Shown here: positions 1 through 50,194 of the stretch, piece by piece
Layout: each line of letters begins with the position of its first letter
How positions within the stretch are numbered: position 1 is the first letter of the stretch
Program-made: the position numbers and the translations under genes
Origin: a virus
Lineage: Duplodnaviria > Caudoviricetes
DNA: 64,000 nt
Virus record (IMG/VR): IMGVR_UViG_3300027807_000003
Location: 1-64,000 of that record
Strand: one strand, 5' to 3'
Notes under the pieces: model-generated
The model's input: only the letters and a program-made list of their open reading frames with translations
What the model was told of the DNA's origin: nothing
The model's database searches: none

Positions 1-851
1 GGACAGACCCGCCGCCCTCTGGAATCCTTTCTCGGCAATAGTCGTAGGATCTGGGGGGTTTAATAATTTCTCTGCCCCAATTCTCTCTAAGGTGCGATCG
101 CTAGCAGTAAAAAATCCACACCGACAACCATAAGCACAACTAGGGGTAGCGATCTTCCAGAAGGGGTGTGTAGCGGGTATGGCTTTATTATGTAATGCCA
201 AATGATTGGGACGGGGGACTACACTATCACGGTGAACCCATACCCACCAAGGACGACTCTGGAGAATTTCCGGTGAGGTTGCCTGCTGATATCGTCCGGC
301 AGCATAACTCCGTCTGAGGTTGGTATCAAGAATGGTATAGAGTCGGCTATCACTAGCTCGCCACCCCCGACGGCCAATTAATCTTTGGAACTGCCTTTTA
401 AAAGTATCTAAATCCGCACCATCCTCAATGTGCTTATTAACCAACCATCTAGCATCATCAAGTAAGTCACCCCGTGTTAGTCCAGAGATGGTAAAAGCTA
501 TATCATGCTGCTCTGCTGTAAAGTCATCCCACCTCTGTGTGGGGATTACTAACTTTTTCCGAAAGTAATCAATTTGCTGCTGAAAAGGCAGTTTGAACCA
601 ACTGGGGTATTTAGCATCTTCTCTACCCCCGTCACCCTCGGCATCCCCGTCATCTACGGTGTCGGACATCCCGGCTAACTTACTCAGGGTTATCCCCTGC
701 TGCAATCCTTGAGTAAATTTGGTCCCACTTATCTTTGGGTAAAGTGACGGCAGGCGATCGCTCAACTCATCAAAACTAGAAAACTGATTAATATGTTCAC
801 TTAGACTAGCGATCCACTGATTTACCCCTTTGGTGACGAGGGGGAGTTTTT
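1..851 (-). CDS. Phage Mu gpF / SPP1 gp7-like head morphogenesis protein (MuF), 3' end outside the window; absent from the ORF track
   Basis: Manual translation, open to base 1: WFKLPFQQQIDYFRKK...AFTISG...LDTNLRRSYAAGRYQQ...HRDSVVPRPNHLALHN...HPFWK...PSCAYGCRC. First in-frame ATG at 669, but the frame is open back to 897 and joins ORF 822-1013 by a -1 shift. Confidence 0.9.
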
Positions 852-1013
852 TTTTACGATTAAATCTGGGACATCTGAGGGATCTACAGAGTCCTTTTTA
901 GTTAATGCTTCTGGTTCCTCGAAGGTGACATAGGTAGGCTCGATAAACCGTAGGTAGTCTAACTCCTGCTGCTCCTCCGGTGTTGTTTCTGTAATTAGTT
1001 CTATGGGGTTCAA
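822..1013 (-). CDS. 63-aa ORF, probable N-terminal leader of the MuF gene (frameshift at A9 tract 847-855)
   Basis: ATG overlaps the portal stop (ATGA); ends shortly after GTA AAA AAA AAC. Confidence 0.6.
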   Translation of the reverse strand: MNPIELITETTPEEQQELDYLRFIEPTYVTFEEPEALTKKDSVDPSDVPDLIVKKNSPSSPKG

Positions 1014-4000
1014 GCTTCCTCCAAGTGGATGCGTTTAATACCGTTTTCTCCGTCTTCTACACCAGTTACCCTACCTCGCCATTTGTGCGGGAGGACTACT
1101 TCTTTCTCCTTGGCAGTCTTGGAGAAGTCTTTAATTATCCTACCTGACTTAGCCTGAATCCGGTACTCAACCTGAGTTGACGCTTCGTGGGGGAGCGATC
1201 GCACTCCGGCTTTTTCGGCTAATTCTTCGTATTTACTGGCTTTGGCTGAGGCACCTTTGGTTTTACCAATTAGCACATCAGATTTACTCTGATCACCATA
1301 GTTACTGGTTTCTTTCCCTGTAAGGTCGGTGCTAGTGGAAGTAAAACCATGCATGACAACTACTTTCCCAACTTGGTATTTATCCACATCCTGAGTTGGG
1401 ATGCGAGTATCACGCCTTAGCTCACCTTCGTAAGTGGGTACTTTCTTAAGCGCTTGGTGGAAAATCTTGGCTTGGAGCAGCTGCTGTTGGGCAGTTTCAC
1501 TGGTGGGGTCTACCTGCAACCCACGTAGTGCTCCATTCATCCCAATGTATCCATTACCCGTGTAATGGTTAATTGCTTTAAATTCATGGGGAGTCATATC
1601 GGGGGCGATCGCCTTAGCTTTGTTGTAAGCTTTTACCTCATTCTCATATCGCTGCCGTAGGTAATGATTCTGTGGTAGTTGTACAGCTTCGTGGGGTTTA
1701 AGAGCAAAATTTAGGTGTTTGTCGGAGTTAGCTAGTTCCTGCTCACTAACAGAAAGTGGCGCATCTAAGTCCCCAATTTTAACGGGGTTCCCTTTCTTAA
1801 ACTTAGCTTTATTTCCAGCTTTAGCCTGCTTTAGTGCTTTCTCGGACTCCCTCAGTTCTGCTTCTGCCTTGGGAATGTCAACTTCTTTTAAGCGTTTGTA
1901 AACTGCTGCTTGCTGTTGAGTATTGACACTCTTACCCATTTCCTCTAACTGAGATTTTTTCAGTTTCAGGTTTTTGGCAGCTTCTTTAAACCTCTGTTCA
2001 TGATGCTCAATTGTGGCCGCAGGTTCTTCCTGTACCTGCGGATTTTCTTGCTGCTGTTGAGCAGGGGGTAATTTCTGTTTCCTGATCCGCCTAATAGCTT
2101 CACCAAAACTAGGCTTTGGTAGTTCGTCTTTTTGCTCTGATGGAGGTTCAGCTATTTCTGTTGGTGGTACCTCTGGAGGTTTCTCTGGGGGTTGCTCAGG
2201 TGGTTTCTCTTTTTTCTTCTTACCCGGCTTCCCTTTTCCCGGCTCAGGTGGTTTCTCCGGAGGTTTCTCAAATATTTCTGGTGGACTCTCTGGAGGTTCA
2301 GGGGGTTTTACTGGCGCTTTCTTCCTTACCTTTGGCTCAATCTTGGGAGCTTCTTGTACCTTTGGCTTAGGTATGGGATCTCCCTGTCTCTGGCTTAAAG
2401 CTAATGCTCCCGCAGCACCACCCACAGCTAAGGCTCCTACACCACTCACGGTAGCGATCGCAGCTATGGATTTAGCCCTTTTGTGCCCCTCATCTTCTTG
2501 GTGTAACGCTGAATGATGGGTTGTTTTCCGTAAATATTTCCCGCCTTTCACCCGGTGATCATATACCCAGTGGTACCCCGGTGGTGCATTTACCAGAGAA
2601 TCTGTCTTTGTCTCCCCTGCCCACTGATAAGCCAGTACAGATGCCTGCATCCCTGGCTTAATCCCAAAGTTGTACACCCCGTACGGACTAGTAAATTGCC
2701 CAAAAATCTCTTGTTTCTGGTTAGTCTGCCACCGATCTAGGTTTACTACCCCTTCAGGAAACCCAGTCTCAACTACTCGCAGCACTTCAGTGTCGCTCAA
2801 ATTCTCCAATTTAATCGGAACCACCACAGTCCCATTTTCCAAGTCAGGGATTTTCACCCCACACCCACAATCACCCACCCCATCTTGGCGATAGCTCTTA
2901 AACTCATCTGTACCAACAGGTTCTACTCCCCCAAATCTTTCTAACCCAGCATGGTAAACAAACGCTTGCTTTACCTCTTGGGGAGAATTGAACCCTAAGA
3001 AATACTTAGGCTCATCTACCATCCCTGTGTCAGGGTGGATTTGCCGCACTTTGTACCCATTGGGTGCAGAAGTTAAGTTTTTCTCATTTACATACACATC
3101 AAAAGCTTTACCATCAGGTGCGTCCCCGTATGACCCCCGAATGTGCCCATAAGACGATAGCATTGTCTTCCCGTGGGAAAATCGTTTATCCCCTGGGGCA
3201 TGAGTAATCCCAATAGGTACATTATTCCAGTGAATTACCCGCTTTGGACGGGTAATTTCCTGCCTATCTTGGATATCTTGAAGCAAAGTATTCCCATAAA
3301 ATGACGAGTCGCCGCGATCGCCCCCACCACCTCCGTCATCATCCCCGTCATCCCCGTCATCGTCCTCAAAATCCTCCCCCTCTGTATCTGCCGAATCATC
3401 ATCGTCATCCCCGAATCCTGATTGCTGTTGTTGGGCTTGCTGCTGCTGCTTCTGAAACTTAGCCCAAGCTTTAGCATCAAGATTGGTTTCCATGCTGAAA
3501 GTAGACCCAAACCGGGAATTTCTGATTTCTTCCGGGGTAACTACCCCCGCTTGCAGGTAGGCGGTGTCGGTGGTGGCTTGGGTACCCCGTAAGCTTGCTT
3601 CTTCCTCTTCACTCAAGTGCTTGATTGAGGGGAAAATTAAATCCCATTCGTCTGGTTCTTGCCCCTTGGTGGGACCTTCCTGAGATAAGAAAATATATCT
3701 CCCAAGTACTTCTAGCTTGGGTTTCCACTCGGTTTCTTGAAATTCCCTTACATCATTTGCCCAGTTATTCTCCTCACTCTCCCCAGTGGCTCCCAACCCT
3801 GATGGTGATTCCCCGAACAGGCGATCATGGGGAATACCTGTCGCGCCAATAAAAGAATCGCGCTGCTCTCGGTTAATGTCCGACACCCCCGACACGTTGC
3901 GGCTAGGAAAATCAATTGCTTCACCGTCAGCATCTACCGCTAGTCCCCCAAACACAGAGGTCATCATCCGCAGCAGGGTGATGTGATCCTTCAGCAAATT

Positions 4001-4795
4001 AACTTCCTGGTCTTTGACCATCTTGGCCAGACCTTTGAGTTTATACACAAACACCGAGGCATCCTGAAGAATCGCTCCCGATGCCTTTAACCCCGTTTTC
4101 CAGTCGCGGTACTCCTCCCAGAGGGTATCAATCATGGAATGTCCCCACCCTTGGTTAAATTTCATCTGGTCAGGGGTGGCATAATTCCCAGAATCAAAAC
4201 GTAAAACTCGTGATTTATGAATTAGGTAAACTGATGCCCCATCTACTACGTCTGCAAATTCCCGTAGCAGGTCATCAGGCAAAATCAACTGATAAAATTC
4301 GGGATCAACTGCACTATACCCCGTCGTCACAAATGGCTGAATTTTCCACCTATCTAGAACCATTAAGCGATCTATCCGCTTAATTCTCTTGGTATTAACT
4401 GGCTTGGTGGCAGGTTGCCCATCTTCCACCACCATAATAATTACGGCACCGCCATAAATATTAGCTTGGGTCTGAGCATCAAAAAAATGCTCCTTCACCC
4501 TCAATCGCTTCTGTTCTTTTTGGAACTCCCGAACCAATTTATTTTTCTTGTTCTTATCTTCTTCGGTACCCAAAGACAACCGCCAACCCTTGACTGAGGC
4601 ACTTTTAGGTCTGGCTGTAACGATCCGATTAATAATTGGGACACCGGCAATATTCTCAACAATATTCTTGGGCCACCGTATCACCAACCCCGGAATAGTG
4701 TACTCCACGCGATCGCGATCCGTACCCATCCCGGTCATCGCATTACGAAGGGTAGCGTCGTATCTAATTTGTTCGTCTAAGGTATCTTCATCCAT
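1010..4795 (-). CDS. DUF1073-family phage portal fused to an InPase-like domain, a hydrophobic helix, a Pro-rich/coiled-coil linker and a VIP2/ExoS-type ADP-ribosyltransferase
   Basis: Portal motifs MTGMGTDRDR, IHKSRVLRF, GIPHDRLFGESPSGLGATGESE; InPase YGHIRG..DGKAFDVYV..DEPKYFLGF; ART YTGNGY.GMNGALR, R..STS..EKE. Confidence 0.85.
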   Translation of the reverse strand: MDEDTLDEQIRYDATLRNAMTGMGTDRDRVEYTIPGLVIRWPKNIVENIAGVPIINRIVTARPKSASVKGWRLSLGTEEDKNKKNKLVREFQKEQKRLRVKEHFFDAQTQANIYGGAVIIMVVEDGQPATKPVNTKRIKRIDRLMVLDRWKIQPFVTTGYSAVDPEFYQLILPDDLLREFADVVDGASVYLIHKSRVLRFDSGNYATPDQMKFNQGWGHSMIDTLWEEYRDWKTGLKASGAILQDASVFVYKLKGLAKMVKDQEVNLLKDHITLLRMMTSVFGGLAVDADGEAIDFPSRNVSGVSDINREQRDSFIGATGIPHDRLFGESPSGLGATGESEENNWANDVREFQETEWKPKLEVLGRYIFLSQEGPTKGQEPDEWDLIFPSIKHLSEEEEASLRGTQATTDTAYLQAGVVTPEEIRNSRFGSTFSMETNLDAKAWAKFQKQQQQAQQQQSGFGDDDDDSADTEGEDFEDDDGDDGDDDGGGGGDRGDSSFYGNTLLQDIQDRQEITRPKRVIHWNNVPIGITHAPGDKRFSHGKTMLSSYGHIRGSYGDAPDGKAFDVYVNEKNLTSAPNGYKVRQIHPDTGMVDEPKYFLGFNSPQEVKQAFVYHAGLERFGGVEPVGTDEFKSYRQDGVGDCGCGVKIPDLENGTVVVPIKLENLSDTEVLRVVETGFPEGVVNLDRWQTNQKQEIFGQFTSPYGVYNFGIKPGMQASVLAYQWAGETKTDSLVNAPPGYHWVYDHRVKGGKYLRKTTHHSALHQEDEGHKRAKSIAAIATVSGVGALAVGGAAGALALSQRQGDPIPKPKVQEAPKIEPKVRKKAPVKPPEPPESPPEIFEKPPEKPPEPGKGKPGKKKKEKPPEQPPEKPPEVPPTEIAEPPSEQKDELPKPSFGEAIRRIRKQKLPPAQQQQENPQVQEEPAATIEHHEQRFKEAAKNLKLKKSQLEEMGKSVNTQQQAAVYKRLKEVDIPKAEAELRESEKALKQAKAGNKAKFKKGNPVKIGDLDAPLSVSEQELANSDKHLNFALKPHEAVQLPQNHYLRQRYENEVKAYNKAKAIAPDMTPHEFKAINHYTGNGYIGMNGALRGLQVDPTSETAQQQLLQAKIFHQALKKVPTYEGELRRDTRIPTQDVDKYQVGKVVVMHGFTSTSTDLTGKETSNYGDQSKSDVLIGKTKGASAKASKYEELAEKAGVRSLPHEASTQVEYRIQAKSGRIIKDFSKTAKEKEVVLPHKWRGRVTGVEDGENGIKRIHLEEA

Positions 4796-4917
4796 GCCTC
4801 TATTTTCGTAGCCAAAATGCAGTGTGGAAGTGAATCTAATATTTCTAGAATCATCTCCACACTGCCCATAAATGCCTAAGCTAGAAGCAAATTAGTCCTA
4901 CATTTTTAGATAAATTT

Positions 4918-5583
4918 ATGGCTCTTGGAGTTGGCTCAGAATCCTACAATCGCCCTTTGGCATCCTCTACAGTTTCCACAAGTATCCCCACTTCCTTTAC
5001 TGTCGGTATTGCTGAAACCAGCGGTAACGAAGTAATTACGATTACGAAACTTGCAAACTTGGATACCGCAAACGTCGCCCAAGTTAGTACGGTGACACTG
5101 GCTACCCCCACGGTTGGCAACACAGTTGCACTTACTGTCACCGCAAACTCAGTGAGTAACCTGTATTTCTACGTTGTCCAAACCGGGGATACAGCCACCT
5201 CTGTCGCGGCTTATTTAGCCAAGATCATCGGCGCAGTTGACCCCAACGTCTCCGCGTCTGCTGCTGCTGGGGTCATCACTCTTACCTCCATAGTCCCTGG
5301 GCAAGCCTTCACCTTGGCAAACACAGGCTCAACAACTCCCTCCAACGTAGTCATCGCCACCACCACTGCTAACTCTGGTACACCTTTGCAGGTACAAACT
5401 GCGATCGCTACCCTGACCTTCAGTGTAGATAGTAATGGCTTCCAATCCATTGCTTTAGGTGGTAACTGGTACACCGGTGCAACTACTCCCGTGGTTGCTG
5501 CTGCTATCCCCACCCTATCAGCTAAAACCCCGGTTTCCTATAACACAATGCAAACTAACAACGGTATCCTACCCCCAGCTTAA
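4918..5583 (+). CDS. Virion structural protein with a tail-sheath-like insertion domain
   Basis: T/V/A-rich; GDTATSVAAYLA...VSASAAAGVITLT resembles the sheath accessory domain. Confidence 0.55.
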   Translation: MALGVGSESYNRPLASSTVSTSIPTSFTVGIAETSGNEVITITKLANLDTANVAQVSTVTLATPTVGNTVALTVTANSVSNLYFYVVQTGDTATSVAAYLAKIIGAVDPNVSASAAAGVITLTSIVPGQAFTLANTGSTTPSNVVIATTTANSGTPLQVQTAIATLTFSVDSNGFQSIALGGNWYTGATTPVVAAAIPTLSAKTPVSYNTMQTNNGILPPA

Positions 5584-6236
5584 TGCGCGACAAAATTAAA
5601 CACATAGAGAGAGTGTGGTTGCAGGTGGGGGATTTTATTTCCCCCACCGCTTTAGCCAAAACAGTAATTATTACCGAGGAATATCTGAGATTTAACTTCC
5701 CCGGTAATTTAAACCTGACTGAATTGTGGGCTATTTCGGGGGCAAAAAAATTCTCTGATCCAGTACCTGCTACCTTCGACTACACTTTTACCTTTAAATC
5801 AGACAAACGGGCAGTACGCCTTAACCATCCCCAGTATGGGCAAAACTTTCAAATCTCCGAACCAGATACTATTTCTGCCCGGTATGTAGTAGATGGTGCA
5901 GACAAGAATACCCCGGCTAAATCTATTGAGATTGTGCCGCAAAAATCCGATGTGAAATATGATGACCAACTATCAATCTCCAAGGATTTACGAGTATTCC
6001 TCGCTGAAAATTTGGTCCACAGTAAAACCGTTAGGGTGGAAGTCCCCTGCCAAGTTATGCAAGTCCAAGCACTGGAGGAACCGCTAGAAGAGGCGATCGC
6101 TCACATGGTCTGCACCTGGAATGATGATAGTGTGCATTACCTAAAATTTGTTGGTAAACCAGAGCCTAATCCTTTTCAAAAACGACTGATGGTTACTCTC
6201 AAAATTACTGGTGTGACAGATGAGGTCTTGTGCTAG
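5583..6236 (+). CDS. Hypothetical protein, putative tail module
   Basis: 217-aa ORF coupled (TAATG) to the structural gene. Confidence 0.7.
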   Translation: MRDKIKHIERVWLQVGDFISPTALAKTVIITEEYLRFNFPGNLNLTELWAISGAKKFSDPVPATFDYTFTFKSDKRAVRLNHPQYGQNFQISEPDTISARYVVDGADKNTPAKSIEIVPQKSDVKYDDQLSISKDLRVFLAENLVHSKTVRVEVPCQVMQVQALEEPLEEAIAHMVCTWNDDSVHYLKFVGKPEPNPFQKRLMVTLKITGVTDEVLC

Positions 6237-7481: not shown

Positions 7482-8051
7482 ATGACTTCATTTAATTTTC
7501 GTGGTAAATCGTATCCTGTATTAGTGGAAAGCTACACCACTACGGATGCAATTAAACTGAGTGAATCAATTGATAATAAATTTAAAGATCCAAAAGACGA
7601 TTCCAGAGCCGCTTATGTCTTTACTAAATTATGCCCCGAATTAGCCAAGGACCTCCCTGGTGTTGTCGCATACAATAGTGAGTTCTCGTTTCTTTGGGGT
7701 ATAGAACTAGCAGAGGCGATCGCCTTCCTTTCCGTTCTGAGTGGTATCACCATGACACGGGTTGCCGACCGTAGTTCCGATCCGGCAACACTTCATCGAA
7801 AAGCCAGAGAAATGGGTGAGCAAGTTGAAGGATTAGTAGAGGAATCTAATCAAGTCTATGCCGAAGCATTACTAGAAAGAATTAGGGAAGAGGAAGGGAC
7901 AATCGACGTGCGCTCGCAAGAAGTTCCTAAAGTTACGATAACTCCAAAAACTACAAAGGGTAAAGCGATCGCCCCCAGTGATAAAGCTTCCAGAAAAGCT
8001 AAATTACTCCAAGAAATTCAAGAATTAGAAGGATCTCCAGATGGTGAATAA
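7482..8051 (+). CDS. Hypothetical protein (possible tail chaperone)
   Basis: 189-aa ORF in the operon. Confidence 0.65.
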   Translation: MTSFNFRGKSYPVLVESYTTTDAIKLSESIDNKFKDPKDDSRAAYVFTKLCPELAKDLPGVVAYNSEFSFLWGIELAEAIAFLSVLSGITMTRVADRSSDPATLHRKAREMGEQVEGLVEESNQVYAEALLERIREEEGTIDVRSQEVPKVTITPKTTKGKAIAPSDKASRKAKLLQEIQELEGSPDGE

Positions 8052-8649
8052 ACCAACAAAATCTGAGGGAAAAGGTAAACCCGCGATCGCTCCTCCAGTA
8101 CCGATGGACCCCCGTATCCTCACCCCCTACGGATTCAATGCTAAAAAGCATGAGCCAGAGCAGGTGACAAAGCTGGCAAATATTTTGAAGGAATATGGGC
8201 CAGATCAACCCATCGTGGTTGATGAGAATCATGTAATCCTCAAAGGGCATGGGAGGCGATTAGCAGCCATTGAAGCTGGACTAGAAACTTTCCCGGTGAT
8301 TGTCCGCACGGGACTAACTGAGGAAGAAAAACGCATTTTGCGCCTATCTGATAACAAAGTCAACGAATCACCTTGGGACGATAAGCTGCTAATAGCAGAG
8401 TTAGCATATCTTCAGGAAGCCGAAAGCGATCTATCTCTAACTGCATTTGACTCGGAGGAGATTGACAGATTATTCCAAGAATTAGAAGGGGACACCGACG
8501 GGCAACTATATGGTGATGGAGGAAGTGGCAAACTGTTCACCGACGATGAACCTGGTAGTGGTATCCCATCCGGCAATAAACCTATTAACGAAAACAAATT
8601 AAGGACTTCCAGAAAACATGAGTGTCCAGAGTGCGGCTACCAGTGGTAA
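8041..8649 (+). CDS. ParB/Srx N-terminal domain protein with C-terminal CPECG zinc knuckle
   Basis: PYGFNAKKH...QPIVVDENHVILKGHGRRLAA...LSDNK. Confidence 0.9.
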   Translation: MVNKPTKSEGKGKPAIAPPVPMDPRILTPYGFNAKKHEPEQVTKLANILKEYGPDQPIVVDENHVILKGHGRRLAAIEAGLETFPVIVRTGLTEEEKRILRLSDNKVNESPWDDKLLIAELAYLQEAESDLSLTAFDSEEIDRLFQELEGDTDGQLYGDGGSGKLFTDDEPGSGIPSGNKPINENKLRTSRKHECPECGYQW

Positions 8650-9649
8650 ACCTACCGTCGTCGATGTTTTCAGTGGTTGCGGCGGCTCAAGCCTGGGCTA
8701 CAAGTGGGCTGGATACCGGGAACTACTAGCGGTTGAATGGGATAAAAACGCCATAGATACCTTCCGCCTTAACTTCCCGGAAATCAATATTTTTGCTGGT
8801 GATATCTGTAGATTGGGGGGTGGACGTGCCCTAGAAATCACCGGATTAAAACCCGGTGAGCTAGATGTGTTCAATGGTAGCCCCCCCTGCCAAGCTTTCT
8901 CCAAAATGGGCAACACCAACCTCAAGGACTCCAGGGGTAAGTTATTTACTGAATATATTCGCTTGCTAAACGTCTTCAAGCCCAAGGTATTTGTTGCTGA
9001 GAACGTCGTCGGGCTAATCACGGGCAAATTCAAAACTTTTTACCTGGATATCATGAGCCAGCTACGTGAGTCTGGCTATAACGTCGAGGCACAGGTAATG
9101 GAATGCAAGTATTTTGAAGTCCCCCAAATGCGAGAGCGTGTCATCATCATTGGGGTGCGATCCGACCTCAACCTCCTCCCATCCCACCCCCGACCATACG
9201 CTAAACCCATCACCTTTAAAGATGCGATCGCTAACCTAGTCATCCCCCCAGACGAACCCCCCTATCACCCAACAGACCAAGAGCTAGAACGCTGGCATAT
9301 CCTCAAACCAGGTGAGAATCAAGCCCTAACAAAATACGGTTGGATGAGAGCAGCACACGTCAAACTCCGGTGGGACCAAGTCGCTCCCACCTTGGTTACA
9401 AGCCACGGATGTTTACCATTCCATCCCTCCGAACCCCGTCGCTTACTGGTGTGTGAAATAGCCCGATTAGCTACCTTCCCAGATAACTTTAAATTTATTG
9501 GTACTCGCTTTGAGCGGATCGCTAGAATCGGTAACTCTGTCCCTCCAAAATTAATGTATGCGATCGCTAAACACATTAAAGAAAATATCTTGAATAGCGA
9601 TCCGACAGCGATCCGATCCGGCGATCCGATAAACGCACGTTTTAGCTGA
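8618..9649 (+). CDS. DNA cytosine-C5 methyltransferase
   Basis: FSGCGG, GSPPCQ, ENV, QMRERV, IGNSVPP motifs. Confidence 0.95.
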   Translation: MSVQSAATSGKPTVVDVFSGCGGSSLGYKWAGYRELLAVEWDKNAIDTFRLNFPEINIFAGDICRLGGGRALEITGLKPGELDVFNGSPPCQAFSKMGNTNLKDSRGKLFTEYIRLLNVFKPKVFVAENVVGLITGKFKTFYLDIMSQLRESGYNVEAQVMECKYFEVPQMRERVIIIGVRSDLNLLPSHPRPYAKPITFKDAIANLVIPPDEPPYHPTDQELERWHILKPGENQALTKYGWMRAAHVKLRWDQVAPTLVTSHGCLPFHPSEPRRLLVCEIARLATFPDNFKFIGTRFERIARIGNSVPPKLMYAIAKHIKENILNSDPTAIRSGDPINARFS

Positions 9650-32097: not shown

Positions 32098-35000
32098 ATG
32101 TTTGCAATCACCACAGCGATCGCTCAATCACTGCTGTCCGCTACACCAAAACAAAGATGGGAGAATAACAAAAAAGCTATAGAATCCCTCAAGCTTGGGG
32201 GGAATATAGCTGATTTAGCTTTATTTAATGGTTGGGGTTCCATCCCCGAAGTATTTAGCTTAAATCCTGAAAAAGGATGGGCGGCTAATGCTCAAGCAGA
32301 GCTAAAGGTACTTTTAGGTGAAGAGGGGTATAACAGTGCTGCCGCAAGTATTCTCAACGCTCACTACACCTCCCCCGAAGTTATCTCAGCTATGTGGAGA
32401 ATGGTTGAGCGATTAGGTTTTGCTGGTGGCAGAGTTCTAGAACCAAGCTGTGGAACAGGGATGTTCTTTGGCTTGATGCCTGAAGATATGAGGGAAAGAT
32501 CTAAGTTGTTCGGCGTGGAAATAGACCCCATACCAGCACAGATCGCCCAAGCTTTGTACCCCAAGTCACGCATATATAATTATGCGTTCCAAGATGTAAA
32601 ATACCCTGATGGGTATTTTGATCTAATTATTGGTAATGTGCCTTTTGGGTCTTATGGTGTGCATGACCCTAAATATAATTTCTTAAATACAGGTATTCAT
32701 AATTATTTTCTAGCCAAATCTTCTGATTTAGTTCGCATTGGTGGGCTAGTTTGTATTCTTACCTCTAACTACACCTTAGATGCTCGTGGTTCCCAAGATT
32801 TCCGGGAATGGTTAGGTGGTAGACAAAAAATGAAATTGTTAGCGGCACTTCACCTGCCCATTGGAATATTCAAGCAAATATCCAGAACAGAGGTCAGCCC
32901 ACTGCTGCTGATATTCCAGAAACTTGCACTTAGCGAGGGAACTAACTCTAAAGATTGGGCAGGGACTAAAGAAGTTTTGATCAAGCCCCATGAATGGAGC
33001 GATGATAACGACTCACCACAGGTAGAAGCTGACCTTAATCAGTGGTTTGTAGGTGAATTCCAAGGTAGACGCTTAGACTACGGATATAGTCAGCTTGCTA
33101 AATCCACCCCCTACTGGGCAACGAAGAAAGGATACGATGACCCCCACAAATTGCTGGGAAGACCAGGGGTGAATAAGCTTTACGGGAATGGATTTGCTCT
33201 GTACGAAGATGGGAGAGACGTAATTGCTGCCCTTGATGGATTCCCCCTACCTGCTGTCTACCAACCTGCGGAAGTAATTCAGGAAGTGCTACTAGTCCCT
33301 CCATCGCTCTTATCCGTGAAGGACGGATCACTATGCCTTCACGAGGGGAAAATCTACCAGCGGGTAGGTGGGAGTTTGCAGTATACAAATGTGGAACAGC
33401 TAAGGGTGAAAGCCTTCTGGCAGTTACGGGAAGTTTTGCTACAAACCATTGAGGCTCAACAGTCTGGTGACGATGACACCCTGCTACAGTGCCAAGCTGA
33501 TTTAGCCACAGAATACCGCCACTTTACCAAGGAATGGGGTCTAGTCAACAGTAAAGAAAATATCAGTAAGCTAGGTGTTGACCCTAATTACTTCTTGGTG
33601 CGATCGCTAGAAAAGTCTGATAAATCTTTAGCTGATATCTTCTACAAGCGAGTATGTCGCACTTACTCTGTGGGTGAAGTGGATAATTCCAAGGATGCCC
33701 TAATTCACTCACTCAACTCCAAAGGTGTACTCGATCTAGAGTTCATGTCACAAATCAGTAATATTGACAAAAATGAACTAGTTAGACAGCTAGATGCTGA
33801 AGATGTGATTTACTGGAATCCCACAGATACCCAGTGGGAGTTAAAGGCAGATTACCTCAGTGGTAATATTCGCCAAAAACTAGAAGCTGCGAAAGCTGCC
33901 GAAATCACCAAAAATATTCAAGCACTAGAAAAAGTCCTGCCCTTGGCTATGCTTCCCGATGCCCCAGATCATGTTAAGTTCCTTTGCTTGGATAACTTAG
34001 GAGTGAAATGGGATCAGCTATCAGATGATGAGCGTGACAAGATTCTGGGTAAGAAAATCTACGTCACCATTGGAACAAGCTGGATCAAACCTGATATCTA
34101 CACTCAATTTGCTAGAGAAGTTCTGAATATTAAGGTGAAAATAACCCACACAGTTGCTGCTAATACCTCATTTTGGAGTGTAGATGGGCAAAACACAGAT
34201 AAGCAGCAGTTTGGTACAGAACATTTAAGCAGTACACAAATTCTGTCTAGGGGATTAAACCAGCAAGATCCAAAAGTGATAATCTATAACACTGATGGTA
34301 GTGGGGTTAATTACTCACTTTCTGCTGAAGCGACAGAGGAAGCTAGGGGTAAGTTAACTATCATCAAAAACGCCTTCAAGGAATGGATTTGGGGCGATCA
34401 GCAGAGATGCATTGAACTGTGTACCTACTACAACACCCACATTAATGTTTACGCCGAAAGGAAGTTTGATGGTAGTTATCTACATTTACCAGGGTCTAAT
34501 CCTAGTATCAAACTCAACCCTTGGCAGTTGAGCGCGATCGCTCGTATTCTCAACAATCAACGAGTGATGCTTGCTCATGATGTAGGATTTGGTAAAACAT
34601 TCATCATGATCACCGCTGTTATGGAGTGTCGGCGATTGGGGTTAGCCAGAAAACCAATACTAGTAGTGCAAAAGGGCAACGTCGCTCAGGTAGTGAACGA
34701 CTTTAAGCTACTTTATCCCTTGGCTAATTTACTAGTCCCTGACAAGTTAGATGCTGGGGGACGGAAATTATTTACTGCTTCTATTCTCACGGGTGACTTT
34801 GATTGTGCAATTGTCACCCACCCCCAGTTTTTCACCTTATCGCTCTCAGAAAACTACCAAGTAGCGTTCTTAAAAGAACAGGTAAACATCCTGACAGAAT
34901 TGATCAAAGATGTAGACGACCGGGGAACTACTAAACATCTTCAGCGCCAAATTAGAAATATTGAAAATCGCATCGAGAAGGTAACTGCTTCTCACCGCAA

Positions 35001-37323
35001 AGATAACCATATTGAGTTTGACGGGCTAACTGATTTTCTGTTAGTTGATGAAATCCAAGCATGGAAAAACTTGGAAGTTATCACCAAAATGTACAACGTG
35101 CGTGGCTTACCCAGTGGCGGATCTCAGAGAGCGATCGACTCTTGGATGAAAGCTTTGGTCGTACTGGGTGATTTAGTTGGTTCTGCCAACAAAGTTAAAG
35201 GTAAGTTAGTGGGAGCAACAGGTACAATCCTGAGTAACTCAATGGCTGAGTTATTTACTTGGATGCGAATGTTTCAGTTACCAGAACTCAAGCGATTAGG
35301 GATTGAGAACTTTGACGAGTGGGCGAGTATGTTCGCTGAACCAACAGCAACCGCCGAAATAACGGCCGGAGGAAAGGTGAGAGTTATTACCCGCTTTAGG
35401 GAATTTCACAACCTTCAAGCATTACGAGGGGTGATGTCACAATTTTTAGATTTAGTGACAAATAAAACCACAAACAACGGGTTAAAACGCCCTGATGCCG
35501 AATTTATTGATGTTGTTACCCCACCTAGTGATACTCAACTTGAGTTTTTACGGGAAGCTTTGAGCAGGGCTGAAGCGATATCTAAGGGTATGGTTCCCCC
35601 TGATCAAGATAATATGCTGAGTGTCACGTCTGATTTAGTTAAGTGTTCCCTCAGTCCCAAGCTAATCGGCTATAACGAGGAAGCCCTAGATAGCAAAGTG
35701 CATGAATGTATCTGGAACGTGTGGCAAATATGGCAGGCAACCACACCGATCAAAGGTACGCAGTTAATATTTAGCGATGGTGGTACACCTAAACCAGACA
35801 AGTATAATGTGTACCAATATATCAAAAATATGCTCATAGCTTTGGGTATACCCGATCGCCAAATCGCTTTTATTCATGATTATGATGGGCAAACCAAGCG
35901 GGCTAAGTTGTACAGGATGATTGAATCTGGGGAGATTCGCATCATCCTCGGTAGCACAGAAAAACTCGGAACTGGTTGTAATGTCCATCAGCGAGGGATA
36001 TGGGCAGCACACCACCTTGATGCACCTTGGCGTCCTGCCGACTTAATCCAACGGGAAGGGCGATCAATCCGCCAAGGTAATGGACAGCTAATTGGCAAAA
36101 TCCTCACTAAAACATGGGTATTCCGCTATGTAGTGGAACGACTAGACGCACTCCGCTGGCAAACACTCCATACCAAGCAGCAGGCGTTTACTCAGTTCTT
36201 GGATGGGGTAGAGCTAGACTCAATGGAAGACGTAGGCTCAGTGGATGCCTACTCCTACGCTCAAGTAAAATCCTTGGCCACTGGGAACCCCCTGCTTATA
36301 GAGGAAGCCAATCTACGAAACCAGCTAAACGCCCTAATCATTCAACAACGGGCGCATGCTCGTCAACAGCTAGGGATTGAGTACACCCTGACCGATTGGC
36401 AACGACGGGTTGAAGATACCCAAGCACGGCTAAAATTCCTCAAGGATGATTTACGCCTTATCCACAATATTAATGATGTATCTAATACCGAAGTAGCCGA
36501 AATAAATATCGCTGTCACAGACTTCTTGGAAAACCCGTTGTATGAAAATACCTACCTTGGGGATTATCGTGGTCTAGAGGTATATGCTAAAAAATGGCAG
36601 TCAGGGGCTATTGATGCATCCCTCAAAGGAAACCTAACTTACTCGTTACCTTGGTCTTACGGCAAAGATAGACCACTGATCAAACTAAGCAAAGTAAACC
36701 CCGCTGGTAGCTTTAATAGCTTAATTGAGGAACTAAAATTCTTCCAGCAAATCTTAGAGAGTAACCTAGAGACAGCAAAAACCGAGTACGATCGCGCCAA
36801 ATCAATTAAGGGACAAGAGTTTCCCCGACTAGAAGAACTCAACAGTATTAAGCAGCGATTACAAGAAATTGATTTACTCTTAGCCGAGACAGCGATCATA
36901 GTTGAGGAAGAAGCTAAATCTAGTAAGGCTAATTCTGATGATGAAGAAGAGAACCACAGATATTATGATTTTGATGACAAATCAACCGTAGGAAATTGCG
37001 ATATCGACCCTGCGATCGCACAACATTTACTAGAAAGAGAACCGGTAGAAGAATGGCTAAAAGAGATATCAGAAATAGTTAGCAAATATTCAGGATTTGC
37101 TGAGAAAATTGAGCCAGACGATTTACCTGAATTAGAGCTAACCTCTATATCATCAAAACAAGCTGCTAAGAGGAATAGAGCTAAAAAGGTAGGTAAAATA
37201 GAACCCAATTTTAAACAACTACAACTAATAGTGGAACCCGAAGAACTAGACCCTGTGCTAGAATTATCTAAGGCGATAAATGGGATACTTGAATTATTCG
37301 ATTATCGTCAAGAAAGTTGTTAG
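32098..37323 (+). CDS. DarB-like N6-adenine methyltransferase / SNF2-type helicase fusion
   Basis: NAHYT, LEPSCGTG, GNVPF; YLSGNIRQKL; HDVGFGKT, VDE, ATGT.LSNS, HHLDAPWRP, QREGRSIRQGN, KSLATGNP. Confidence 0.9.
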   Translation: MFAITTAIAQSLLSATPKQRWENNKKAIESLKLGGNIADLALFNGWGSIPEVFSLNPEKGWAANAQAELKVLLGEEGYNSAAASILNAHYTSPEVISAMWRMVERLGFAGGRVLEPSCGTGMFFGLMPEDMRERSKLFGVEIDPIPAQIAQALYPKSRIYNYAFQDVKYPDGYFDLIIGNVPFGSYGVHDPKYNFLNTGIHNYFLAKSSDLVRIGGLVCILTSNYTLDARGSQDFREWLGGRQKMKLLAALHLPIGIFKQISRTEVSPLLLIFQKLALSEGTNSKDWAGTKEVLIKPHEWSDDNDSPQVEADLNQWFVGEFQGRRLDYGYSQLAKSTPYWATKKGYDDPHKLLGRPGVNKLYGNGFALYEDGRDVIAALDGFPLPAVYQPAEVIQEVLLVPPSLLSVKDGSLCLHEGKIYQRVGGSLQYTNVEQLRVKAFWQLREVLLQTIEAQQSGDDDTLLQCQADLATEYRHFTKEWGLVNSKENISKLGVDPNYFLVRSLEKSDKSLADIFYKRVCRTYSVGEVDNSKDALIHSLNSKGVLDLEFMSQISNIDKNELVRQLDAEDVIYWNPTDTQWELKADYLSGNIRQKLEAAKAAEITKNIQALEKVLPLAMLPDAPDHVKFLCLDNLGVKWDQLSDDERDKILGKKIYVTIGTSWIKPDIYTQFAREVLNIKVKITHTVAANTSFWSVDGQNTDKQQFGTEHLSSTQILSRGLNQQDPKVIIYNTDGSGVNYSLSAEATEEARGKLTIIKNAFKEWIWGDQQRCIELCTYYNTHINVYAERKFDGSYLHLPGSNPSIKLNPWQLSAIARILNNQRVMLAHDVGFGKTFIMITAVMECRRLGLARKPILVVQKGNVAQVVNDFKLLYPLANLLVPDKLDAGGRKLFTASILTGDFDCAIVTHPQFFTLSLSENYQVAFLKEQVNILTELIKDVDDRGTTKHLQRQIRNIENRIEKVTASHRKDNHIEFDGLTDFLLVDEIQAWKNLEVITKMYNVRGLPSGGSQRAIDSWMKALVVLGDLVGSANKVKGKLVGATGTILSNSMAELFTWMRMFQLPELKRLGIENFDEWASMFAEPTATAEITAGGKVRVITRFREFHNLQALRGVMSQFLDLVTNKTTNNGLKRPDAEFIDVVTPPSDTQLEFLREALSRAEAISKGMVPPDQDNMLSVTSDLVKCSLSPKLIGYNEEALDSKVHECIWNVWQIWQATTPIKGTQLIFSDGGTPKPDKYNVYQYIKNMLIALGIPDRQIAFIHDYDGQTKRAKLYRMIESGEIRIILGSTEKLGTGCNVHQRGIWAAHHLDAPWRPADLIQREGRSIRQGNGQLIGKILTKTWVFRYVVERLDALRWQTLHTKQQAFTQFLDGVELDSMEDVGSVDAYSYAQVKSLATGNPLLIEEANLRNQLNALIIQQRAHARQQLGIEYTLTDWQRRVEDTQARLKFLKDDLRLIHNINDVSNTEVAEINIAVTDFLENPLYENTYLGDYRGLEVYAKKWQSGAIDASLKGNLTYSLPWSYGKDRPLIKLSKVNPAGSFNSLIEELKFFQQILESNLETAKTEYDRAKSIKGQEFPRLEELNSIKQRLQEIDLLLAETAIIVEEEAKSSKANSDDEEENHRYYDFDDKSTVGNCDIDPAIAQHLLEREPVEEWLKEISEIVSKYSGFAEKIEPDDLPELELTSISSKQAAKRNRAKKVGKIEPNFKQLQLIVEPEELDPVLELSKAINGILELFDYRQESC

Positions 37324-48732: not shown

Positions 48733-49184
48733 AGGCTTTCTCCGTGCAGCAGCCTTACGCAGGATTTTTTGTTGCTTTGAATAGGAGCGATAGTACTCCT
48801 ATTAAGCAGTGGGAGACTGGAAGACTAAAAACAAATTACAGAGGACCAATAGTAATTTGTTCAAGTCGTGTAAAAAGTGCAAAAATTAATAGAGAATTAC
48901 GCGAAAAGTTCGCGGATCTGATAAACCAATCACACCTAAATCAGCTGATAACTTCTTATGCCGGAAGTGCGATCGCTATAGCTGATTTAGTAGATTGCCT
49001 ACCAATCACCCAAGAGCTAATCGACCAACAGACAGAATTAGAGAAGAGAGTGGGTTTTTGGGTGTTGGGCGATCACACTAAATACGCTTGGAAACTAGAG
49101 AATGTCCGCCGAATCCCTGTACCATTCCCTGTACGTGGGCAATTAGGGATTTACAATTTACCCTACGAAATTGAAATAGCATGA
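48729..49184 (+). CDS. ASCH-domain protein
   Basis: MKAFSVQQPYA...K.WET...TNYRG..YAWKLENVR..P.PVRGQLG. Confidence 0.9.
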   Translation: MKAFSVQQPYAGFFVALNRSDSTPIKQWETGRLKTNYRGPIVICSSRVKSAKINRELREKFADLINQSHLNQLITSYAGSAIAIADLVDCLPITQELIDQQTELEKRVGFWVLGDHTKYAWKLENVRRIPVPFPVRGQLGIYNLPYEIEIA

Positions 49185-50194
49185 TCGACATCGGTAGTAT
49201 CTGTTCCGGTATGGGAATGGGCTTACACGGGTTAGGTACGCCAAAGTGGGGAATTGAGTACGATGAAAAGATCGCCCAAGTCTACAAACTCAATCACCCT
49301 ACCTCACAGATCTATGTCCAACCTGTAGAATCAATCATCCCATCCACGCTGCAAGACGTAGACCTAATCATTGCTACTCCCAGTTGTCAAAATGCATCAA
49401 TCGCCAAAGGTGAGTCCATCGAAGCTCCTGAAGACTACAGGGTAGGGCAGGCGATCGCCCAAATAATTTCCACTAAACTCCCCAAATTCTTCATGCTAGA
49501 AAACGTCTGGGGATATCGTAATTTTGATGCGTTCAAAACCATTATTGCTGCTCTTAACAGGAATGGCTATTACTTGCAGTATTATCATCTGAACTTAGCT
49601 GACTGGGGTATTGCCCAATCCAGATTCCGTCTTTACCTGTTAGCTATCAGACATGGTGCGTTCTGGGATGTAGTCCCACCCCAACTACCAAAGGTAGGAT
49701 GGTATGAGGCGATCGCGGATCTAATCCCCGAACTTCCAGAGTCTCAGTTATGTGATTGGCAACTCAAGAAATTCCCCAATTTGTCTCAAGTCTGCCTAAT
49801 CCCTGACCATTCCAACTGGACTCCTTTAGTCCCTCCCACAAAACCAGCAAATACTATTCGCGCTGGACATACCACATTCAAAGCTTTGGTTAAACGGGCT
49901 GGTGGTGGACGGGACAGCGATCGCCTTTACCTCCCATCAGACCCACCACCAACTATCAAAGCGATGTGTGGTCAGCAGTATCGCCAACTTGATGCAATAG
50001 TTGGGGATGCGATCGTTTGTGTGACTCCCCGCGCTTGTCTCCGGTTCTTTGGGAATAAGGAGATAGCAGATAATATTTGGCTACCACCTCAAAAGGGTTT
50101 AGCTACAAAGGTGGTAGGGAATGGAGCTAGCTGGCAAATTTTCGGGCAATTGTTTAATCACTTACAACTATCATGTGACATTAACGTCGCTTAA
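49181..50194 (+). CDS. DNA cytosine-C5 methyltransferase (TPSCQ variant)
   Basis: CSGMG, TPSCQ, ENV, QSRFR, VGN. Confidence 0.85.
   Translation: MIDIGSICSGMGMGLHGLGTPKWGIEYDEKIAQVYKLNHPTSQIYVQPVESIIPSTLQDVDLIIATPSCQNASIAKGESIEAPEDYRVGQAIAQIISTKLPKFFMLENVWGYRNFDAFKTIIAALNRNGYYLQYYHLNLADWGIAQSRFRLYLLAIRHGAFWDVVPPQLPKVGWYEAIADLIPELPESQLCDWQLKKFPNLSQVCLIPDHSNWTPLVPPTKPANTIRAGHTTFKALVKRAGGGRDSDRLYLPSDPPPTIKAMCGQQYRQLDAIVGDAIVCVTPRACLRFFGNKEIADNIWLPPQKGLATKVVGNGASWQIFGQLFNHLQLSCDINVA

Follow-up and report, generated by a model that had tools for sequence, protein, structure and literature searches.

A cyanophage portal protein extended by pyrophosphatase-like and ADP-ribosyltransferase domains, a candidate carrier of enzymes in the phage head

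Organization of the portal locus

The window analysed here is the first 64 kb (64,000 nucleotides) of a 134,332-bp metagenome virus record (IMGVR_UViG_3300027807_000003; Caudoviricetes) that CheckV rates as complete (100%), and the subject of this study is one of its minus-strand open reading frames (ORFs), P0001, which codes for a phage portal protein with a long C-terminal extension. A preliminary description of this ORF had placed a portal at about 4795-3460, followed by an acidic linker, an InPase-like domain at about 3240-2900, an unknown domain, a hydrophobic helix, a Pro-rich and coiled-coil linker and, at about 1597-1013, an ADP-ribosyltransferase (ART) with intact R-STS-ExE motifs. 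All of these parts were recovered, with coordinates that proved correct within a few tens of bases:

1010..4795, minus strand: whole ORF (P0001), portal with C-terminal cargo extension, 1261 aa, ATG start
3563..4651, minus strand: Phage_portal_3 (DUF1073) domain, residues 49-411, Pfam E 5.2e-60
3308..3421, minus strand: Asp/Glu/Gly-rich acidic linker, residues 459-496, by direct sequence reading
2888..3244, minus strand: InPase domain (family I pyrophosphatase-like), residues 518-636, Pfam PF18823 E 1.7e-18
2606..2845, minus strand: domain X, a conserved alpha/beta domain, residues ~651-730, from alignment in 8/14 relatives and an AF2 model (pLDDT 76-92)
2525..2605, minus strand: junction motif (…PPGYHWVYDHRVKGGKYLRK; also given as …GYHWVYDHRVKGGKYLRK), residues 731-757, past which relatives diverge
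2393..2476, minus strand: Gly/Ala-rich hydrophobic, transmembrane-like helix, residues 774-801, Kyte-Doolittle 1.84 over 19 aa
2108..2383, minus strand: Glu-Pro/Lys-Pro-rich spacer, residues 805-896, 4-8 Pro per 20 residues
1790..2005, minus strand: Lys/Glu-rich helical, coiled-coil-like segment, residues 931-1002, by composition
1019..1621, minus strand: ART domain, residues 1059-1259, Pfam PF03496 (ADPrib_exo_Tox) E 2.6e-7
1412-1414, 1337-1339, 1106-1108 and 1100-1102, minus strand: ART catalytic codons R1128, S1153, E1230 and E1232, respectively

The portal domain scored 203.5 bits (207.3 in the genome scan) against a Pfam cut-off of 33.8 and covered positions 7-356 of the 357 in the model, while PHROG portal matches span approximately residues 9-503 (phrog_220, 8e-165; phrog_146, 9.7e-79). 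A profile built from relatives matches the portal structure of the Pam3 cyanophage (8hds, E 1.6e-32), which has 12 chains, and the homology to such solved dodecameric portals suggests that the protein forms a dodecameric ring at one capsid vertex. In the genome scan, PF06381 (the DUF1073 portal family) matched one protein only, P0001, and the PF04860 and PF05133 portal families had no match; judged from these three families, the fusion protein is therefore the only portal found and the functioning portal of the phage. Note that the PF06074 scan was uninformative, as the control genomes stayed silent.

Integrity of the fusion

The preliminary description had named an assembly artefact as the finding that would undo the fusion. 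Four moss or related metagenome runs (X1-X4) contain parts of the region, and among these X2 and X3 are separate samples and studies. Contigs of X1 cover 7-1951, 2083-3132 and 3187-5459 with 0 differences, a contig of X2 covers 1506-2271, and the X1 and X2 contigs overlap from the downstream MuF gene to the InPase domain. Contigs of X2-X4 leave parts of the ORF uncovered. That the fusion could be an assembly chimera, or a decaying gene whose ART part is no longer expressed, is suggested by the nature of the record as a metagenome assembly, by the fact that no listed contig spans the whole ORF, with 3133-3186 as the only stretch left unbridged among the listed contigs, and by X1, which may be the sample of origin. 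However, these 54 bases fall within the InPase domain, whose alignment to the Pfam model runs through them without a break, and the overlap of X1 with X2 also speaks against a chimera. The strain differences (39 listed of 50) point the same way: of the listed ones, 25 fall inside the portal ORF, and 18 of these are synonymous in the portal frame, compared with 2 and 3 in the other two frames. The diverged X3 strain keeps the portal frame, with an in-frame 9-nt deletion at 2292, within the Pro-rich spacer. In addition, the portal-InPase-X layout is common to Nostoc genomes and an isolated phage, and the catalytic residues are intact. With contigs of several runs tiling the ORF and differences that are mostly synonymous in frame, the chimera or decay reading is highly improbable and was rejected: the portal fusion ORF is a genuine coding sequence.

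Other searches at this level returned little. Contig matches of 34 bases at 3421-3454, found in all four runs, fall in a CAG-rich region coding for a Gln run and carry 4 differences, and they were set aside as low-complexity noise. Megablast found nothing in the phage collection that matches window 1-6000, and a scan of viral contigs with P0001 gave 10 pattern matches, of which 0 were confirmed.

Enzyme domains and domain X

The ART domain scored 30.6 bits against a PF03496 cut-off of 23.4, and the 'Alt-like' family phrog_802 matches residues 914-1236 (E 9.4e-5). The closest solved ART sequences are PDB 6drh/6dre (E 1.3e-7), deposited as 'PAAR repeat-containing protein' and which we take to be Tre1, followed by the arginine ART Vis (4xzj, E 4.6e-5), both being bacterial secreted toxins; the target of Tre1 is FtsZ. 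In the alignment with 6drh and 4xzj, their R, STS and ExE positions are occupied by R1128, T1152-S1153-T1154 and E1230-K-E1232, in agreement with the intact motifs described earlier, and R1128, S1153 and E1232 are invariant in 36/36 aligned ART relatives (E1230 in 29/36). The domain is thus predicted to be an arginine-type (R-S-ExE) mono-ADP-ribosyltransferase. The helical segment at residues 931-1002, for which the composition suggests a coiled coil, is homologous in the stand-alone ART proteins P0084 and P0085 and moves with the ART.

The InPase domain scored 67.2 bits against a PF18823 cut-off of 26.8, and an AF2 model of residues 505-835 was confident over InPase and X, with a pLDDT of ~90 at the InPase. 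The best PDB matches of the InPase model in Foldseek are family I pyrophosphatases, at a weak level (E 7e-3, probability 0.97). Four conserved acidic metal-binding residues are described for the InPase family (PMC5512222), and the domain keeps all residues conserved at ≥90% in 26 sequences, including the D, D and DE positions, although one other acidic position, the Glu of 'THEPGD', is not kept. Domain X, which corresponds to the unknown domain of the preliminary description, had no Pfam match and nothing significant in Foldseek against the PDB (best E 0.15), and the protein Atlas gave no usable match for it. Modelled alone it reaches a pLDDT of 74, and its only match in the viral structure library is a 1393-aa CL131-type portal.

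Portal relatives and the exchangeable C-terminal end

The nearest isolated phage is Aphanizomenon phage vB_AphaS-CL131 (CL131), whose gp012 (ORF012, 'putative portal protein', 1393 aa) is 46.6% identical to residues 1-735 of the window portal and has neighbours in the same gene order and on the opposite strand, matching the arrangement in the window. A survey of DUF1073 fusions, as the preliminary description had proposed, retrieved 82 proteins of 693-2207 aa with the portal part, and 75 of them bear an extra Pfam domain, some more than one. The counts among these 82 long DUF1073 proteins are as follows:

DUF5872: 27/82
InPase: 26/82
DUF6496: 14/82
MuF: 6/82
Topoisomerase IB: 4/82
Acb1, LPD13, Zeta toxin and ART: 1/82 each
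No extra Pfam domain: 7/82

The closest relatives (45-55% identity) have the portal, linker, InPase, X and junction motif in common and then end differently. The part after the junction is MuF in P0004, P0006 and CL131, GNAT-like in P0005 and P0008, an HExxH module in P0003 and P0007, and the ART in the window protein. A Gly/Ala-rich helix follows the junction in 5/83 portal proteins (P0001, P0007, P0008, P0009 and P0014), and in P0007, P0008, P0009 and P0014 it is followed by charged repeats in place of the Pro-rich spacer. In Nostoc linckia z4, the portal-InPase-X-GNAT gene precedes a 334-aa gene that opens with the junction motif and carries an HExxH module, and past this cassette gene lie a 95-codon ORF and then a MuF gene containing an intein (L006 11172-13061, with Hint and Intein_splicing matches; P0012 also lists PF14890). 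This locus is a polymorphic-toxin-type layout. No such spare cassette was found in the window phage, where the junction motif occurs once in the genome, compared with twice in Nostoc linckia z4.

The family shows one trait of polymorphic toxins, namely a constant N-terminal part and junction with C-terminal domains that differ between close relatives, and P0001 also has one trait of the polyvalent proteins of Iyer et al. 2017, as two effector-type domains (InPase and ART) are found on the portal. Pfam gave no LPD or MPTase match in P0001 at E up to 1, and the relative P0007 has a weak LPD1 match (E 0.0015). Note that the plain DUF1073 portals P0004, P0006 and P0081 are publicly named 'anti-CBASS protein Acb1 family', and that P0069 has a real Acb1 (2H) domain fused past the portal (residues 529-671); the name on the plain portals looks like annotation spill-over from such fusions.

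Distribution of the ART and published precedents

When the ART region (residues 1000-1261) was used in a word-based search for homologues among proteins of 693-2207 aa, nothing was returned. This blank reflects a sensitivity limit, since an exhaustive search gave 336 representatives at E ≤0.001, the 1072-aa P0093 among them, and 18 of the 336 at ≤1e-30. Of the best 150 ART relatives, 8 are joined to a DUF1073 portal, 3 to a Mu-type portal and 6 to MuF, and the 11 other portal-ART proteins thereby make the association of portal and ART a recurrent one. The closest relatives, 66% and 57% identical, stand alone as proteins of 400-480 aa made of the helical segment and the ART. Two of these closest stand-alone proteins, P0084 and P0085, have a short N-terminal motif in common (QPRD..GRW…YIP.AK), which might be a head-targeting or docking signal. 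The InPase, domain X and the Pro-rich spacer were absent from all 12 other portal-ART proteins examined, among which P0107 is the sole one with any hydrophobic helix, and no ART was found in the other InPase-bearing long DUF1073 proteins (0/25). The combination of InPase and ART on a single portal was met in no other protein examined.

The separate elements have precedents. The InPase has been described fused to portals (BcepF1.124), together with PBECR and 2H portal fusions, all read as injected cargo (PMC5512222), and portal-Nudix fusions as well as ART fusions to head or portal proteins have also been described (PMC5512222, PMC9503650). The paucity of polyvalent proteins in cyanobacteria was noted in the same context (Iyer 2017, PMC5512222). 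MuF polymorphic toxins adjoin portal genes and are reported almost solely in temperate phages (PMC5576092), and both MuF-effector and portal-effector fusions are interpreted as injected cargo (PMC5512222, PMC9503650, PMC5576092). The preliminary description had stated that effectors of this kind are usually fused to MuF or polyvalent proteins; such carriers are indeed on record, and the portal is no exception to them, given the portal-effector fusions in print (PMC5512222, PMC9503650) and the 75/82 proteins of our survey.

Compared with these systems, the portal-InPase proteins BcepF1 gp124, CL131 gp012, that of Planktothrix phage PaV-LD and Pa193 gp19 resemble the window protein in having a DUF1073-type portal, a linker and the InPase, but none of them has an ART. 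CL131 gp012 also has domain X and an A9 run before MuF in common with the window and continues in frame into MuF, whereas Pa193 gp19 and the PaV-LD portal end after the InPase. The MuF-ART toxins (Jamet et al. 2017) and the head- or portal-fused ARTs (Iyer et al. 2022) have, like the window protein, an R-S-E ART at the C-terminus of a head protein and variable C-termini in a conserved packaging-gene context; in contrast to the MuF-ART toxins, the carrier in the window is the portal, MuF is a separate gene and the host is a cyanobacterium. T4 Alt is a head-carried ART injected with the DNA (PMC5512222), as proposed here, but it is a free internal protein and not part of the portal, and its sequence relation to the window ART is weak (phrog_802).

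The MuF gene and the poly-A run

Directly downstream of the portal gene lie three features that concern the next head gene:

822..1013, minus strand: 63-codon ORF, whose TTG overlaps the TGA stop of the portal (GCTTGAAC)
847..855, minus strand: A9 run, A_AAA_AAC in the 63-codon frame, where a -1 shift is needed to enter the MuF frame
1..897, minus strand: MuF (PF04233) reading frame, Pfam E 1.8e-11, crossing the circular junction of the record

The MuF domain scored 45.2 bits against a cut-off of 29.6. In phrog_220, the portal takes profile positions 19-482 and the next gene, MuF, positions 858-1111, and the joining of both in one PHROG profile therefore indicates that relatives are portal-MuF fusions; MuF is here a separate, translationally coupled gene, in contrast to the portal fusion of these relatives. 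Although open from 897, the MuF frame offers no ATG, GTG or TTG before 765. The end of the 63-codon ORF (…KKDSVDPSDVPDLIVKK; also …TKKDSVDPSDVPDLIVKK) is similar to the beginning of the MuF module in relatives, which is a short motif likeness: this ORF had no Pfam or PHROG family match, and it was rejected as a homologue of any part of P0006, as BLASTP against that protein was not significant. In the -1 frame, 59% identity to the MuF end of P0006 starts exactly at the A run ('KKLP'), and the product of a -1 shift reads …DLIVKK-N/K-LPLV…

Several observations bear on the run itself. Its length is identical in the contigs of X1, X2 and the diverged X3, the lone strain difference upstream of it (864) is synonymous in the 63-codon frame only, and of the 13 strain differences downstream of it, 10 are synonymous in the frame of MuF. 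In 5/5 related loci, the start of the MuF module is marked by an A9 or A10 run, out of frame in 2 (the window and L006, Nostoc linckia z4) and in frame in 3 (L007, L008 and CL131). Nostoc linckia z4 has the same arrangement as the window, with A_AAA_AAG (L006 10926), and in Nostoc CHAB 5836 (A10), Nostoc NMS7 (A9) and CL131 (A9) the run lies in frame at the X/MuF boundary and the shifted frames stop soon after. Homopolymers of at least 9 are limited to two in the 134-kb genome. The other one, also an A9 run (G000 106592-106600, in coordinates of the whole record), lies 20 nt before the stop of a 642-aa ORF (104683-106611), and no frameshift partner was found for it, as neither shifted frame enters the next gene.

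Known poly-A recoding includes dnaX-type frameshifting on A_AAA_AAG and transcriptional slippage on runs of at least 9 A, of which slippage on A9 is the simplest form. The window and Nostoc linckia z4 resemble such sites in having an in-frame slippery run, a short zero-frame product that ends a few codons on and a long -1 product. Unlike at such sites, no stimulatory RNA structure stands out downstream of the window run (z-scores 0.06, -0.72, -0.71 and 1.10). On balance we lean, by a small measure, towards a full-length MuF that would be read by slippage on the A9 run; internal initiation at TTG 765 or a tolerated frameshift mutation would be the alternatives. A limited literature search returned nothing relevant on frameshifting between portal and minor head protein genes, which is insufficient to call the idea unpublished.

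Source phage and gene content

The last 133 bases of the record (G000 134200-134332) duplicate window 1-132 with one indel, and this terminal repeat therefore indicates a circular assembly, despite the class 'linear'. The record ends differ by a single A near window base 7, and this indel alters the last residues of the MuF ORF. The sequence GCGATCGC, which we take to be the cyanobacterial palindrome HIP1, has 109 copies in the window against ~1 expected (191 in the whole genome), and this abundance fits a cyanobacterial host.

The genome codes for a DUF2213-type head maturation protease, a major head protein and a large terminase, as well as DnaB, ribonucleotide reductase (RNR), an endolysin and a 1741-aa DarB-like protein. 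The large terminase (window 51587-53998, plus strand, 803 aa) lies 47 kb from the portal gene, and its terminase match starts at about residue 357. The portal-MuF pair is the sole minus-strand unit amid plus-strand blocks, likewise in CL131, and several DNA methyltransferase genes are present in the window (8041-9649 and 49181-50194). The 1741-aa protein (window 32098-37323, plus strand) matches DarB-like antirestriction, methyltransferase and helicase families (phrog_10089, 1025 bits) and could be a second protein carried in the head. A further ORF, of 1707 aa and outside the window (G000 106793-111916), begins with a …KPCGKGYIPAGRKC… motif, similar to motifs that precede the InPase in the portals of relatives, followed by a Gly/Ala-rich hydrophobic helix; its matches to lipases and esterases are weak, and it may be one more protein that lies inside the virion or is ejected from it.

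Metagenome contigs that match ~30-35 bases of the window run on into cyanobacterial CRISPR-repeat-like sequence (e.g., …CCCTATTAGGGATTGAAAC). These matches lie near 1951, 2026-2059, 2709-2743, 3187, 3587, 5459 and 5555, several of them within the portal gene, and hosts in the same samples appear to carry spacers against the window phage. Host CRISPR spacers are reported to target CL131 ORF012 (PMC6293099).

Delivery of the cargo and alternative explanations

The reading that we hold to be probable, with clear room for others, is that the portal carries the InPase and ART cargo in the head and that this cargo is injected to aid takeover of the host or to blunt its defence. The portal would form a ring of twelve subunits, the way of the DNA in and out of the head, extended at its capsid-facing C-terminus by InPase and X as conserved modules, then by the junction motif and finally by an exchangeable cargo, which in the window phage comprises the hydrophobic helix, the EP/KP-rich spacer, the helical segment and the ART. 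Portal C-termini point towards the inside of the capsid, which places the extension within the head. As the cargo belongs to the portal chain itself, each head should receive about twelve copies with no separate packaging signal. The cargo would probably be released by the head maturation protease, or else unfolded, and would leave through the portal and tail channel along with the DNA. In the new cyanobacterial host, the ART would modify arginines of host proteins using NAD+ and the InPase would remove pyrophosphate or a nucleotide-derived signal, so that takeover would be helped or defence blunted.

Several observations agree with a cargo inside the head. The C-terminal barrels of portals are described as reaching into the capsid interior, and CL131 ORF012 is among 23 virion proteins identified by LC-MS/MS of purified virions (PMC6293099), so that the homologue of the window protein is a virion protein, which supports the cargo reading. 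Further support comes from the same ART subfamily being found on two portal families, on MuF or alone. In the Pa193 portal, residues 94-528 are modelled and 529-765 show no density, and that study mentions pyrophosphatase 0 times (PMC11456595); our search finds an InPase-like stretch at residues 664-755 of this portal, within the density-free region. As for the earlier proposal that the portal itself packages an injected enzyme set, carriage of the cargo into the head is thus its best-supported part, while injection would follow by analogy.

Against delivery into the host it has to be said that the case for injection is comparative throughout. No protease domain or recognisable cleavage site was found between portal and cargo (Pfam, P0001), twelve tethered tails of 800 residues would need cutting or unfolding to pass the channel, and it is hard to see what purpose a hydrophobic helix would have in a head filled with DNA. 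By the positive-inside rule, the Lys-rich side past the helix would face the cytoplasm. The enzymes also leave some doubt. The Pfam score of the ART is modest, and this domain has an insert of ~45 residues between STS and ExE relative to Tre1. In the InPase, most close relatives keep the Glu of 'THEPGD' and some others have Q, V or D, whereas the window protein has Ala at this position, and its InPase may therefore be inactive or altered.

The lack of a protease site or domain in a covalently tethered cargo would also suit an extension that stays in the capsid as a structural or assembly appendage of the portal (an organiser of DNA or scaffold, a nucleator of head assembly at the membrane via the helix, or a channel plug), in which case any enzyme activity would be exerted late in the producing cell by unassembled portal subunits. 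The C-terminal region of the Pa193 portal is merely disordered in the virion (PMC11456595), and the helix could serve membrane-proximal assembly, as a review of jumbo phages mentions membrane-linked assembly of the T4 portal. However, close relatives keep the portal and exchange the last domain, which is the pattern of conflict effectors and not of structural parts, the same ART occurs on MuF and on an unrelated portal family, and a head maturation protease is encoded, so we consider a capsid-bound appendage unlikely. The swapped ends could in turn belong to a polymorphic toxin, whose cargo would arrest or kill cells that have no immunity protein, in competition among lysogens or phages, with the small ORF as immunity factor. 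The conserved junction, the variable C-terminal domains and the spare cassette downstream in a Nostoc genome are all of this kind, the closest solved ART relative is a type VI secretion toxin (6drh/6dre, if this is Tre1, as we assume), and a small acidic ORF lies directly after the ART; MuF toxins have been described as polymorphic toxins (PMC5576092). Yet the 63-codon ORF resembles the start of a MuF module and not an immunity gene, and has no family match. MuF toxins are found almost only in temperate phages (PMC5576092), whereas the gene content here (RNR, DnaB and many methylases) is that of a lytic phage, with no integration family among the 49 of 143 ORFs scanned against PHROGs, apart from a transposase-like ORF (G000 79711-81591). 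A toxin of this type is consequently quite improbable, and the delivery of an InPase and ART cargo from the head stays the reading that we prefer.

A wider proposal would join these elements, in that the portal gene of CL131-like cyanophages would act as a diversification platform with swapped cargo, A-run slippage and membrane-inserting tails. The junction motif would permit swaps of injected modules (ART, GNAT-like and HExxH), with spares kept downstream, and the A9/A10 run would set the amount of MuF, or the number of MuF-bearing portal subunits, via -1 slippage. In the forms with a helix and an EP/KP or charged-repeat spacer, the twelve released tails would enter the inner membrane of the host, join the DNA conduit and hold the enzyme at the cytoplasmic face; a Gly/Ala-rich helix with a rigid EP/KP or charged-repeat spacer is a TonB-like arrangement. 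As a whole, this proposal is speculative and we regard it as doubtful.

Significance

The portal-InPase-ART protein is a further case of a theme published by comparative genomics (Iyer 2017, 2022) and not a surprise. Three points are new: a single portal bears both InPase and ART, the cargo of CL131-like cyanophages shows a swap pattern past a conserved junction, and a poly-A run marks the boundary between portal and MuF. If this run does recode, it would be a case not described before in which stoichiometry is controlled during head assembly. Head-carried effectors are among the first phage items that a cell meets on infection, and apart from T4 Alt and a handful of ejection proteins, what is known of them comes almost solely from sequence comparison. 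With a copy number fixed at twelve and no packaging signal, portal-borne cargo would offer a clean test system for the delivery of head-fused domains, and the family, with a cultured member (CL131) and prophage-like Nostoc copies, provides natural cargo swaps for such tests.

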